Origin: a virus
Direction: 5' to 3' (one strand)
Length of the DNA stretch: 62,895 nt
Virus record (IMG/VR): IMGVR_UViG_3300014656_000029
In this document: positions 12,435 to 15,985 of the stretch, piece by piece
Layout: each line of letters starts with the position of its first letter
Numbering within the stretch: the stretch's first letter is position 1
Translations under genes and position numbers: made by a program
Notes under the pieces: generated by a model
Database searches by the model: none
What the model saw: only the letters and a program-made list of their open reading frames with translations
Told to the model about the DNA's origin: nothing

Positions 12435-12617
12435 TTATTTTTCCTCTTCTTCATTTGAGAAATCCAGCAGTTCTTCGTAGTGATCGTGTAATACTTTGTA
12501 AAATTCAGGAGGCAAGGTTTCTTGGTGCGAAAACAATAAATTAGCAACATCACTCATAGCTTTTGCTAGTCTTTCGTCTATGTCGGTGTCCTGTTCCGTG
12601 TCTTTTTCTTTGCACAT
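12435..12617 (-). CDS. small acidic protein
   Basis: 60 aa; GGAGGAAGG SD upstream. Confidence 0.4.
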   Translation of the reverse strand: MCKEKDTEQDTDIDERLAKAMSDVANLLFSHQETLPPEFYKVLHDHYEELLDFSNEEEEK

Positions 12618-13120
12618 TATTCACCTTCCTCCAAGCTACTAATCGCCCGTGTTATTTCAAAATTAATCATGTTTATAAGTTCTCTTTTTTCTTCTTGTAT
12701 TTTACTGTGCACATATCTTTTTAATTTGGTTTTTACAGAGTCGGACGTATTAGCATAAGATTTGTAAGCGTCTGTGTACTTTAGCGTGTAGGCATCTACT
12801 ATTGCTTGTTTGGTGCTTTTTTTATTTAAAAATTTTGTGTGTAAAATATCTGAAACCAACTCGGGAGTAATTTTAGGTATGATTTCCTTGCATCCAAAAA
12901 TGTCTTTAGAATAGCTATCTCTAATGAACTTTTTATCTAGTTGGTCCTTAAACACGTTCATAGCTCTTGTGTTAGCTAATTTTTTATATACTTTATTGGC
13001 TACACTGTTTGTAAATTTATTGAGGTAATCTTTTTTTAGCGTAGAAATACACTCCTGTACATTGCCAGAAAAAAGACCGAAAAATTCTTCTTTTGTTTTT
13101 ACTATTAGATACAAGTTCAT
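12617..13120 (-). CDS. paralog-array protein, family A (copy 0, most diverged)
   Basis: N-terminal pattern M-x-L-x-x-I-x-T-x-E-x-F shared with 13661..14137 and 14699..15154. Confidence 0.5.
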   Translation of the reverse strand: MNLYLIVKTKEEFFGLFSGNVQECISTLKKDYLNKFTNSVANKVYKKLANTRAMNVFKDQLDKKFIRDSYSKDIFGCKEIIPKITPELVSDILHTKFLNKKSTKQAIVDAYTLKYTDAYKSYANTSDSVKTKLKRYVHSKIQEEKRELINMINFEITRAISSLEEGE

Positions 13121-13656
13121 TACAGATCCCCTTTCTCCAAAGACGCCAGAATATTTGCAATAACTTCTTTCTTATATGTTTCTTTTACTTTTGTTGTAAT
13201 GTACTCCTTAAGAGTTTCTTCAACCATACGCTTATGTTCTGAGTTATACAAGTCTATTATTTCTTTTTTAATAACTTCCAAATCAGAAGTAGATTTTTCT
13301 GTGTAATAAGCGCAAGCTTCCCTGCGAACACTATCATGTATTTCTTGTTCTACTGTTTCCTTTAAAGCGCTTTTATTATAGATTTTACTTGTCCTGTTAA
13401 AATCTATAAATTCTCTAGACAACATCTCTTTGAAGCCTTTTATGGCGTTGTTTACCCTCTCTTCCATTTGTTTTGTTATGTTAGCCATAAGCTTATCTGT
13501 AAATATAGATGTAACCCTAGGTAAAATTTCTCTTTCCACGAAGTCGTGAATAGTTAGATTTGTTATATTTACCACTAGATTATCTACGTTTCCAAGTAAG
13601 GAATAAATAGCTTCGGGGAAATCCAATTTAACGTTAGTTGTTTTGTCTTTAGACAT
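13120..13656 (-). CDS. paralog-array protein, family B (copy 0)
   Basis: MSK..T..VKLDFPEAI N-terminus, homologous to 14140..14694 and 15157..15708. Confidence 0.5.
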   Translation of the reverse strand: MSKDKTTNVKLDFPEAIYSLLGNVDNLVVNITNLTIHDFVEREILPRVTSIFTDKLMANITKQMEERVNNAIKGFKEMLSREFIDFNRTSKIYNKSALKETVEQEIHDSVRREACAYYTEKSTSDLEVIKKEIIDLYNSEHKRMVEETLKEYITTKVKETYKKEVIANILASLEKGDL

Positions 13657-13660
13657 AATG

Positions 13661-14137
13661 CTACTCCTTTGTACCTTCAGGTAAATTGTTTAAAACTTCA
13701 TTTATTTTAGTGTTAACATATTCTCCATACATTTTACCTTTTTCCTGATCCTGTTTTTTTGATAATCGTAATAACTCAGACGTAATGTGTTCTTCTAAGG
13801 AATCGCCCCAGCCTCTAACTTTTTTGTACAGATCATTTACATTTGTTTCAGCAAAATAAGATTCTACAAAACATTTAACTGTAGTTTCTGCTATGTTACT
13901 AGGTATTTTAATAGAATGTTCGCAAAAATCCCTGTAACACATATTCAAATCAGCCTTAAACGAAGCACTAGTTCTTGAAGTAAATGTTTTAAATAGTTTA
14001 CTATTAATAATTTGTTTTACTAACTTTTTAGCAATCTGTTTTTTAATGTGGTCTCTTGCTGTCTCTAAAAAAGAACTGGGGTCTTCCAAAATATCCTTAA
14101 ATGTTTCTACTGTATCAATACTAAATAATTTAAACAT
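13661..14137 (-). CDS. paralog-array protein, family A (copy 1)
   Basis: MFKLFSIDTVETF...INEVLNNLPEGTKE; C-terminus identical to copy 2. Confidence 0.55.
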   Translation of the reverse strand: MFKLFSIDTVETFKDILEDPSSFLETARDHIKKQIAKKLVKQIINSKLFKTFTSRTSASFKADLNMCYRDFCEHSIKIPSNIAETTVKCFVESYFAETNVNDLYKKVRGWGDSLEEHITSELLRLSKKQDQEKGKMYGEYVNTKINEVLNNLPEGTKE

Positions 14138-14139
14138 AA

Positions 14140-14694
14140 TTATAACTCCTTAGTGATTCTATCTAGCGCCGATTGTACCTCTTTAACCGCTTTAATTTTG
14201 TAAAATTCTACAACCCTTTGTTCTATAGCTAAATCTATACTATTCTTTAACCTCTCCTCTCTTGCTTCAAATTCTTTTCTTATACTTTCTTCTCTCTGGT
14301 TTACCGCAGTTTCAATTGTTTCGTACATTAAACTTCTGAAGCTATCTTGCGCAACTCTCGTTATTGCTGACATAACTGATGCTGACAAAATAATAGTTTT
14401 TCTTCCGCATGAGCTGGAATATTTTGCAAGGGTTTTCTCTAACCTATCTTGTAACTCTAGTTCAAATTTGTCTAAGTAATTCCCAATGTTGTTCCTTACT
14501 TCCCTTTTAATTTTTACAGTAAGGGCGCTACCTATAAAAGGCTCTATATGCTCTGCATAGAATTCCCTAATCTGCTCATTAGTAATAGCAAACTTGATAA
14601 GGTTATTATCTGGTGAAGTAAAGAGACAACTAATAGCCTCTTTGAAATCTAACCTAGTTACAGCTTTAACGGTTTCGGTTGCTCTTTTAGACAT
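14140..14694 (-). CDS. paralog-array protein, family B (copy 1)
   Basis: MSKRATETVKAVTRLDFKEAI..ITNEQIREFYAEHIEP, shared with copy 2. Confidence 0.55.
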   Translation of the reverse strand: MSKRATETVKAVTRLDFKEAISCLFTSPDNNLIKFAITNEQIREFYAEHIEPFIGSALTVKIKREVRNNIGNYLDKFELELQDRLEKTLAKYSSSCGRKTIILSASVMSAITRVAQDSFRSLMYETIETAVNQREESIRKEFEAREERLKNSIDLAIEQRVVEFYKIKAVKEVQSALDRITKEL

Positions 14695-14698
14695 AATA

Positions 14699-15154
14699 CT
14701 ACTCCTTTGTACCTTCAGGTAAATTGTTTAAAACTTCATTTATTTTAGTGTTAATGTATTTTTCGTACTTAACTCTATGTTCATTGTCCCACCTGCTTAT
14801 GAACAGAAGTCCCTTATCCTCAATTTTTTTGTCAATTTTTTTAAGCAGTTCCATATTATTTTCTTCCGAAATATATGACTCCACGTTGTACTTAAGGCAA
14901 TTGTCCATTATCTTTGGAGGAACTTTAAAATTGGTTCCCATAATATCGTAGTAAATATCTCCTGCGTCTGCTTTTAATGAACGATAGGATCTCGAAATAT
15001 ACCCGGAAACTGTTTTACTGTGAATAATTATTTTTATTACTTTATTAATAACTTGTTGTGTAATGTCCTCTTTGGATAGGCAAATCAAGTGCGTGTTGTC
15101 ATTCATAATACCTTGAAATGTTTCTTCTGTGTCAATATTGAATAATTTAAACAT
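14699..15154 (-). CDS. paralog-array protein, family A (copy 2)
   Basis: MFKLFNIDTEETF...INEVLNNLPEGTKE. Confidence 0.55.
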   Translation of the reverse strand: MFKLFNIDTEETFQGIMNDNTHLICLSKEDITQQVINKVIKIIIHSKTVSGYISRSYRSLKADAGDIYYDIMGTNFKVPPKIMDNCLKYNVESYISEENNMELLKKIDKKIEDKGLLFISRWDNEHRVKYEKYINTKINEVLNNLPEGTKE

Positions 15155-15156
15155 TA

Positions 15157-15708
15157 TTACATCTCCTTAGTTATTTCTGCTAAAACCATGTGAAGAGTAT
15201 TTACTGTTTTATTTTTATATAATTCGATAACCCTTTCTTCTATTGCTACATTAATATCTTCTATTATGCTAGCTTCTCTTGCTTCAAATTCTTTTCTTAT
15301 CTCGGCTTCTTTACTCTGAATTCCTTTTTCTATAGCCTCCGAAATTAATCTATTAAATTCATTCAAAGTAAAACTTTTTATAGCTTCTTCTGCGTAACCA
15401 TAAAGTTTAAAAATATAATTGTGGTTGTATGTATTGTATTCTCCAACAGTTTTAATTAAATTTCGGTGCAAATCATTCTCAAATTTAGCTAAGCCTTCGC
15501 TAAATAGATTATCGACCCGTCTTTTAATTTTAGAAGTAATTACTGTAAGAAGAATAGGCTCTATATGCTCTGCATAGAATTCCCTAATCTGCTCATTAGT
15601 AATAGCAAATTTAAGAAGGTTATTGGGTGAAGTAAAGAGACAATTAATAGCCTCTTTGAAATCTAACCTAGTTACAGCTTTAACGGTTTCGGTTGCTCTT
15701 TTAGACAT
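15157..15708 (-). CDS. paralog-array protein, family B (copy 2)
   Basis: Likely start is MSKRATETVKAV at 15708, preceded by AAGGAG; the track start at 15729 adds 7 aa. Confidence 0.55.
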   Translation of the reverse strand: MSKRATETVKAVTRLDFKEAINCLFTSPNNLLKFAITNEQIREFYAEHIEPILLTVITSKIKRRVDNLFSEGLAKFENDLHRNLIKTVGEYNTYNHNYIFKLYGYAEEAIKSFTLNEFNRLISEAIEKGIQSKEAEIRKEFEAREASIIEDINVAIEERVIELYKNKTVNTLHMVLAEITKEM

Positions 15709-15985
15709 AATGCTACTCCTTTGTTTCATAAAACATTGTTACAAGTATCTACCAGAAAATTATACTTAAAAAAAGCTATAAGTAAACTTTTTGTTACCCT
15801 TTGTTTGATTTTTAAAATTGCTGATGTAATTTTAGATAGAGATTGCCTACTGGTGTTTAATCTGGATTTCTGTAAAACCTAGGTGTACGTTTTAAAAAAA
15901 TTGTAAATTGTAAACATAGTAAATATCCTCTGTCTATTATCTTACTCATTTCTGAAATATTGTCAACCCTATTTTAACATCAGGG

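Follow-up and report, generated by a model that had tools for sequence, protein, structure and literature searches.

A tandem array of a coupled two-gene module in a phage genome carries near-identical sequence across a gene boundary

The DNA examined here is a 62,895-nt stretch of the IMG/VR virus record IMGVR_UViG_3300014656_000029 (the window), in which short genes of two kinds, here called A and B, alternate in tandem. The window has 21 tRNAs, a GC content of 34%, and homologs in uncultured phages of 462-735 kb, and its source looks like a large phage. The initial annotation had described a three-fold tandem array of a two-gene module between 12617 and 15729. This array is real, as six tightly coupled open reading frames (ORFs) on the minus strand follow one another in the transcription order B3-A3-B2-A2-B1-A1, with B proteins of 183-184 amino acids (aa) for B3 and B2 and 178 aa for B1, and A proteins of 151-158 aa for A3 and A2 and 167 aa for A1. 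Only 2 nt separate a B stop codon from the next A start and 4 nt an A stop from the next B start, while TAATG overlaps join B1 to A1 and A1 to a 60-aa ORF. Each downstream gene has its AAGGAG ribosome-binding site within the last Lys-Glu codons of the gene before it, that of A3 being found in the final codons of B3. Two unrelated small-protein families (B, ~180 aa; A, ~150-167 aa) make up this minus-strand operon, whose genes are translationally coupled. The intergenic junctions had also been described as identical, which they are only nearly: TAG-TATT-ATG versus TAG-CATT-ATG from A to B and TAA-TA-ATG versus TAA-TT-ATG from B to A. The longest possible B3 ORF begins at 15729; however, the true start is most likely at 15708, because the ATG at this position has an AAAGGAG ribosome-binding site upstream, the resulting protein begins MSKRATE as in B2, and a public gene call for it (P0001) has 183 aa. 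A scan for promoters and terminators gave counts that were not above chance, and the three sigma-70-like matches in the spacer upstream of B3 were likewise no more than chance. Downstream, a 259-aa ORF is probably the last gene of the transcription unit of the array. A profile search with hidden Markov models (HMMs) found no further copy of either family in the window.

Relatives of this module are few. A word-indexed search of 5.8 billion clusters recovered nothing besides the proteins of the window itself, which come from a 121-kb contig, and a single relative of B, with none for A, and an exhaustive B profile search of 1.84 billion representative proteins gave 14 matches, the closer of which sit on two short contigs, L001 and L006. 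The gene order of L001 (3.5 kb) is exoribonuclease, 96-aa ORF, Bx, Ax, By, Ay, and 55-aa ORF, the 96-aa ORF being located where the window has a non-coding spacer. L006 (2.8 kb) carries Bp, Ap, Bq, and Aq, the last of these being cut by the contig end. GenBank phages yielded no match to megablast of the 11.0-17.7 kb region or to tblastn of B2 and A2, while locus scans of IMG/VR and JGI metagenome contigs gave no confirmed relatives and a broad B-family profile search added only hypothetical T4-like proteins. The alignment of A is too divergent for deriving search patterns. Despite the very large databases, the module is thus known from three lineages only, and the comparison of array size that had been proposed gives two pairs in L001 and L006 and three in the window.

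Paralogy between the copies can be stated with different firmness for the two families. B3 and B2 are 54% identical over their full length (96% in residues 1-51 and 38% in the remainder), and B1, which is 20-25% identical to B2 and B3 and 42% identical to By, matches them in BLASTP with expectation values (E) of 4e-7 for B2 and 6e-7 for B3. HMMs of the B subgroups also recover one another at E of 1e-10 to 1e-17 in a database of 130 ORFs, and by sequence B1-B3 are clearly one paralogous family. Among the A proteins, A3 and A2 are 43% identical over their full length (31% in the center, rising to 95% over the 19 C-terminal residues), and they can be grouped with Ax as an x class, the y class consisting of A1, Ay, Ap, and Aq. 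A1 is 34% identical to Ay, but its link to A2 and A3 is weak: BLASTP gave E 0.003 over 143 colinear residues for A2 and E 2.3 for A3, the A3/A2/Ax HMM recovered neither A1 nor any other member of the y class, and hhalign of the x class versus the y class gave a weak match (29% probability, E 6e-4) with residues 5-57 in register. A1 therefore is only weakly linked to the A family, its putative membership resting mainly on its position after a B gene, its size, colinear motifs, and trees congruent with those of B. The assignment of the array genes as paralogs accordingly holds for all three B proteins and for A2 and A3, and the similarity of B3 to B2 and of A3 to A2 is not limited to short low-complexity termini, as both pairs align over their full length.

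Neighbor-joining trees of A and B are congruent, each grouping x with (3,2) and y with 1 and placing the L006 genes outside. Thus, the x pair was duplicated in the lineage of the window, with A and B having duplicated and diverged together. In this phage clade, the conserved ancestral order is B-A-B-A, the x pair lying upstream of the y pair, and the extra pair of the window is a tandem duplication of the upstream x pair. The A and B orthologs in the syntenic relative are 25-42% identical, compared with 53% for the flanking exoribonuclease, from which it follows that the module evolves fast. In this respect, and given its occurrence in three lineages, the earlier description of a rapidly evolving phage accessory locus is fair, whereas the reading of recent copies whose centers diverged, as in arms-race genes, is not supported, as will be seen from the distribution of synonymous changes.

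To compare the two x pairs of the window, unit 3 was aligned to unit 2 at the DNA level and the rates of synonymous (dS) and nonsynonymous (dN) substitution were obtained as Nei-Gojobori estimates. The resulting picture is a mosaic. Two homogenized tracts (Table 1) are nearly free of differences, while 171 of 382 columns differ in the B body and 186 of 379 in the A center, with the B-to-A junction plus A N-terminus being intermediate (9 of 60 columns). Outside the tracts, units 3 and 2 differ at 45-49% of sites overall, yet their longest identical run is 67 nt, compared with a maximum of 33 in 10,000 permutations (p ≤ 1e-4). In the proteins, the near-identical ends are confined to the B N-terminus (49 of 51 aa) and the A C-terminus (18 of 19 aa); the B C-terminus and the A N-terminus are only moderately similar. 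The near-identical N- and C-termini of the initial annotation are therefore correct for one end of each protein and not for the other, and these two ends constitute one contiguous DNA segment across the A-to-B junction. Both tracts have a dS of 0.10 and a dN of 0.02. For the B body, in contrast, dS is 1.45 and dN 0.55 (dN/dS 0.38), and for the A center dS is 0.83 and dN 0.69, a dN/dS of ~0.8 that is unreliable near saturation.

Table 1. Features of the array, its homogenized tracts, and the adjoining genes
Feature	Coordinates	Strand	Description	Basis or remark
Exoribonuclease gene	15986..16579	minus	Rv2179c-like 3'-5' exoribonuclease	Upstream synteny anchor with L001 (53% identity)
Spacer	15709..15985	minus	Non-coding, 277 nt, exoribonuclease gene to B3	Presumed operon promoter region
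B3	15157..15708	minus	183 aa, x-class B, first array gene	ORF scan, homology, and ribosome-binding site
A3	14699..15154	minus	151 aa, x-class A	Start 2 nt past B3 stop
B2	14140..14694	minus	184 aa, x-class B	Comparison with B3
A2	13661..14137	minus	158 aa, x-class A	Comparison with A3
B1	13120..13656	minus	178 aa, y-class B	Ortholog is By of L001
A1	12617..13120	minus	167 aa, y-class A	Ortholog is Ay of L001; start overlaps B1 stop (TAATG)
60-aa ORF	12435..12617	minus	Acidic	Start overlaps A1 stop; counterpart after array in L001 (55 aa, E 8e-4)
259-aa ORF	11654..12433	minus	No family match	Begins 1 nt past 60-aa ORF
Homogenized tract I, copy at B3	15556..15724	minus	17 nt upstream of ATG and codons 1-51	9 of 172 columns differ, 3 of them one indel
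Composite near-identical segment across the A3-B2 boundary	14539..14755	minus	A3 3' part (14695-14755) resembles A2 3' end; B2 5' part (14539-14710) resembles B3 5' end
Homogenized tract II	13657..13717	minus	A2 3' end (last 56 nt of A) and A2-B1 junction	2 differences in 61 nt versus A3 copy

The age of the duplication can be read from the sequence beyond the tracts, where B3 and B2 are 38% identical to each other and 34% and 28% identical, respectively, to Bx. Since synonymous sites are near saturation and B3 and B2 resemble each other barely more than they resemble Bx, the x-pair duplication is old by these sequence measures, and the units that had been taken for the two newest copies are not new. 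The tracts tell a different story. Toward L001, the B N-terminus is 46-50% identical to that of Bx with a dS of ~2, and the A C-terminus is 21-26% identical to that of Ax. Because tract dS is low and these same termini are poorly conserved in L001, the near-identity reflects recent DNA transfer rather than protein constraint: an A 3' segment of ~60 nt and a segment of ~170 nt comprising the ribosome-binding site and B codons 1-51 have recently been copied between the repeats. The mechanism of copying is most likely short-tract gene conversion or intra-array recombination. What had been interpreted as recent copies with diverged centers is instead the recent homogenization of a boundary between old paralogs (dS ~0.1 versus 0.8-1.45), and we hold this evolutionary reading as a whole, an old duplication with a recently homogenized boundary, with high confidence. 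Gene conversion between tandem paralogs is known from many gene families of bacteria, phages, and eukaryotes. As in such concerted evolution, the tracts found here are sharply bounded, have a dS ~ten-fold below that of the flanking paralogous sequence, and lie where the gene is most conserved; there is no difference in principle, the present case being one in which the repeat unit has two genes and the affected sequence crosses a gene boundary.

Two other origins for parts of this mosaic were rejected or set aside. An RNA element in the homogenized tract finds no support, as the composite tract forms no structure more stable than shuffled sequence (z = +1.27) and has no Rfam hit. A diversity-generating retroelement as the cause of the central divergence was set aside on the sequence pattern alone, no search for a reverse transcriptase having been made; the central differences include indels, touch all bases, and extend over ~380 nt of each gene.

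A more serious alternative is that the tandem duplication is recent after all, with the centers having been diversified in an arms race and the termini held constant by function. The contrast between near-identical termini and very different centers is what this would produce, the locus does evolve faster than the flanking enzyme, the A-center dN/dS of ~0.8 is not clearly below 1, and tract I ends together with the conserved N-terminal domain of B. However, dS also differs 8- to 15-fold between termini (0.10) and centers (0.83-1.45), and this cannot be explained by selection on protein. The dN/dS of the central regions, whose calculation had been suggested, came to ~0.4 for B and ~0.8 for A (near saturation), both below 1, so that neither the B body nor the A center provides evidence of positive selection in this ratio. 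The supposedly constant termini are moreover only 21-50% identical in the L001 ortholog, and the array proteins have neither defense or anti-defense family hits nor membrane segments. Overall, we regard an arms race as improbable. The end of tract I, which falls at the ...HIEP motif closing the conserved N-terminal domain of the B family, does not discriminate: it fits conversion being easiest where paralogs are most alike, and equally a selected constant module.

The families to which the array proteins belong give a partial view of their nature. In a direct comparison, B2 matched the uncharacterized phage family phrog_3806 at E 8.1e-4 over residues 59-163, while B3 and B1 had no match to it at 0.01 and B3 matched phrog_19308 at E 0.0025. 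The B profile search of 1.84 billion proteins found P0011-P0018 over their full length (E 2.9e-5 to 8.5e-4), and these proteins match phrog_3806 at E 1e-7 to 2e-19; annotated members from T4-like and Erwinia (Vequintavirinae) phages were likewise found by the B profile in a small database (E 7.5e-7 and 9.6e-6). Remote but consistent, these matches show B to be a distant, lineage-specific offshoot of phrog_3806, the members of which include hypothetical proteins of Pseudotevenvirus phages (RB43, GuL6, and GAP161 gp248), of Klebsiella and Enterobacter straboviruses, and of Erwinia Vequintavirinae. B shares with this family a size of 150-185 aa, a full-length colinear match, an N-terminal motif (L-x-L-D..A-I/L..L-F ... 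F..H-I-x-P), a central Trp/hairpin region, long C-terminal helices, and non-structural gene neighborhoods. On the other hand, members are 13-24% identical to B, and only B2 reaches them directly at E < 1e-3; elsewhere they are single-copy and have no detectable A-like partner, whereas every B of the module has an A after it, in two or three successive pairs. A1-A3 had no PHROG hit at E ≤ 0.01, and A is, judged by its sequence, an orphan family. Pfam and NCBIfam gave nothing above their cut-offs for the array proteins, with sub-threshold library matches to DUF7841 (E 0.0016), DUF7446 (E 0.0066), and V-ATPase E (0.0076) being regarded as composition noise; PADLOC returned only sub-threshold noise (E ≥ 0.005, ≤15 bits), and a PDB profile search found nothing significant for B or A. 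A literature search turned up no paper that mentions phrog_3806.

Both families appear to consist of soluble, hydrophilic, mostly helical small proteins. Their grand average of hydropathy ranges from -0.33 to -0.71, Pro and Gly contents are low, and the maximum 19-residue Kyte-Doolittle mean is 0.17-1.07 across all 14 proteins, compared with ~1.6 as is usual for transmembrane segments. AlphaFold models of B2 improved from a predicted local distance difference test (pLDDT) score of 63.5 with a 4-sequence alignment to 76.5 with 28 sequences, exceeding 90 over residues 110-183 at a predicted template modeling score (pTM) of 0.36. The predicted B2 fold has a short N-terminal helix, a 51-residue helix (39-89), a beta-hairpin (90-103), and a 79-residue helix (105-183). 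Structural matches to the B model were generic coiled-coil only. The helix-hairpin-helix topology had raised the idea of a prefoldin-like subunit, which was rejected when no match to prefoldin chains was obtained.

The roles that had been suggested for the locus were anti-defense, superinfection exclusion, and internal virion proteins, and there is no positive evidence for any of them. Searches of PADLOC, Pfam, and NCBIfam placed no array protein in a defense, toxin, or antitoxin family, and the absence of a hydrophobic segment leaves no transmembrane segment of the kind expected for membrane superinfection exclusion. The genes around the array and its relatives have a different flavor. Neighbors in the window encode an exoribonuclease, a ferritin-like protein, a phosphatase, and a MazG-like protein. 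In the T4-like Buttiauxella phage GuL6, a phrog_3806-type B relative (L004, 3998-4528) lies between nrdD and nrdG. B relatives also adjoin ThyX and DNA ligase genes on contigs L007 and L008, the one at L007 3-539 being directly upstream of ThyX, three DUF6197 paralogs, and DNA ligase.

Taken together, the explanation that we somewhat favor is a coupled B-A operon with an old x-pair duplication and a homogenized boundary, encoding helical accessory proteins. Conversion would have been favored at the boundary since the B N-terminal domain, the best conserved part of the family, keeps enough DNA identity for recombination. Each B would be co-translated with the A after it in equal amounts, and the two may assemble into an elongated heteromeric helical complex of the coiled-coil type, although we consider such a B:A heteromer tentatively, at slightly less than even chances. 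The three pairs would then be diverged isoforms with the same basic activity and different partner specificity, acting as early or middle accessory proteins of a non-structural kind in the neighborhood of nucleotide or nucleic-acid metabolism rather than as virion components. Based as it is only on operon architecture and gene neighborhood, the assignment to a non-structural accessory class in the vicinity of nucleotide and nucleic-acid metabolism is speculative and, taken by itself, rather unlikely to be exactly right.

It should be noted that several observations weigh against this explanation. With one recent partner pair, gene conversion is indistinguishable from recombination with an unsampled close relative, and dS estimates above ~1 are imprecise. 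The comparison draws on three lineages only, two of them on contigs of ≤3.5 kb, such that the polarity of the copy-number change (a gain in the window as opposed to a loss in L001) depends on a distance tree, and the full three-pair order is documented on a single 121-kb contig only. Finally, the x and y classes of A are linked only weakly, and pTM of the AlphaFold models is low (0.29-0.36).

A bolder possibility is that the B-A pair is an undescribed two-component phage effector, a heteromeric coiled coil with a constant and a variable part. In such an effector, the B N-terminal domain plus the A C-terminus, held identical by gene conversion, would dock a common partner, while the variable helical bodies would have been diversified towards different host or defense targets. 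If true, the array would be a small specificity library with a logic like that of polymorphic toxin or internal-protein loci, and the locus would become more interesting, its pairs being specificity variants of one effector. We think this quite unlikely.

It is very unlikely that A and B are capsid-internal or ejected proteins, with the B N-terminus acting as a capsid-targeting or protease-processing sequence. T4 internal proteins and the phiKZ inner-body paralogs are proteins of this sort, and the T4 internal proteins are encoded in hypervariable loci and have a short conserved N-terminal capsid-targeting sequence. By general knowledge of such loci, the array resembles them in that a large myovirus-like genome encodes small accessory proteins in tandem, a common N-terminus is combined with a divergent body, and copy number varies among relatives; its products are small, charged, helical paralogs as well. 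Several features speak against a virion location. Among the ORFs scanned at ~9.2-28 kb, many of which have no family hit, there is no recognizable structural or protease gene, and the neighborhood is one of nucleotide and RNA metabolism rather than head genes, just as the phrog_3806 relatives occur among nucleotide-metabolism genes (nrdD/nrdG; ThyX and DNA ligase). No named PHROG or Pfam family is similar to the array proteins. At ~50 residues, the conserved N-terminal region is a domain common to the whole family and not a short leader, and the N-terminal identity is not conserved between lineages. Rather, the shared segment comprises 51 residues plus the 3' end of the preceding gene and is near-identical at synonymous sites, which points to DNA homogenization and not to a conserved targeting peptide.

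A and B might also be ancient paralogs, making the locus a six-fold repeat of one gene. The two have a similar size and composition, colinear C-terminal motifs (YINTKINE versus YITTKVKE), and weak reciprocal HMMER matches in a database of 174 ORFs (A profile to B1, E 1.3e-4; B profile to A1, E 2.4e-3). However, these matches have a high composition bias (8.6-9.9 bits of 10-15), hhalign gave probabilities of 1.5% (5+5 sequences) and 2.8% (7+7 sequences), and the A proteins do not match phrog_3806. By sequence, A and B are thus not detectably related, and common descent of the two is highly unlikely.

The third pair might finally be an assembly artefact in which a metagenome assembler joined two strain alleles of one x pair in tandem, which the complete three-pair order being known from one MEGAHIT-style contig and the two pairs of the relatives would allow, but this is unlikely in the extreme, as the longest identical run between units (67 nt) and the ~23 nt shared by the A-to-B1-type junction and the B3-upstream region are both far shorter than k = 141, the k-mer size suggested by 'k141' in the contig name, an independent assembly (ERZ27247121) carries B2-A2-B1 on a 993-bp contig, and the Logan contig L003 has its first base 34 nt before the B1 start (L003 1-34 = window 13657-13690), exactly at the position where tract II branches to B1 (C) or B2 (T), a repeat-induced contig break indicating that both continuations were present in those reads.

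Several other features of the window were observed alongside the array. Upstream in the direction of its transcription, a ferritin/Dps-like ORF is located at 17728-18243 on the minus strand (E 5e-32), and beside it (region 16552-18243, minus strand) a 363-aa ORF has a faint match to ART-PolyVal, an ADP-ribosyltransferase, that remains below threshold (E 0.076). The region 1598-9211 looks like a glycan-related cluster, in which two MptE-like/Maf-like ORFs, at 1598-3040 (minus) and 4816-6474 (plus), lie on either side of a 535-aa ORF that contains a 93-nt tandem repeat (95% identical, 3920-4091), and a BNR/sialidase-like ORF occupies 8180-9211. At 7821-8180 on the minus strand, a 119-aa ORF with an RF-1 domain (E 7e-19) may encode an ArfB-like peptidyl-tRNA hydrolase or ribosome-rescue factor. 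The plus strand has a B12-binding radical SAM enzyme at 28202-29497 and, at 30021-32495, an 824-aa ORF matching the Pfam shoulder and repeat domains of the major vault protein and an SPFH/Band 7 domain. Over 95-98% of its length, this vault-like ORF shares 38% identity with ORFs of the 462-kb and 735-kb uncultured phages (LR756500 and LR756501/3); for huge phages, a gene resembling that of a vault protein seems unusual, and a literature search gave nothing relevant. Of the tRNA genes, 20 are on the minus strand at 42112-60860 and are interleaved with minus-strand ORFs (45930-47102, 47291-48115, and 49624-50163) that form a second paralog family with 62-146-nt repeats, carry HNH_3 endonuclease and RWP-RK/HTH_50 domains, and are probably homing endonucleases. 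ARAGORN also reported a tRNA with a two-base anticodon ('gt') at 60698-60779 (minus) adjoining tRNA-Thr, which could be a pseudogene, an intron-containing tRNA, or an unusual decoder.

In sum, the array is a tandem paralog expansion of uncharacterized phage accessory genes, and the process that shaped it is ordinary concerted evolution. Two points are modestly new: B has A as an obligate partner, and the probable conversion extends over a gene boundary. As a case in which concerted evolution reaches across the border between two genes of a phage operon, the array is clean and quantified, and its practical value is modest. For loci with a pattern of conserved ends and a divergent middle, it indicates that synonymous sites should be checked before an arms race is invoked. 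The results also tie three orphan genes to phrog_3806, a widespread uncharacterized family found in T4-like and other large phages. As one clade in which a family of the phrog_3806 type is multi-copy and has an obligate neighbor A, these phages offer a convenient setting for finding the binding partner and function of the family.

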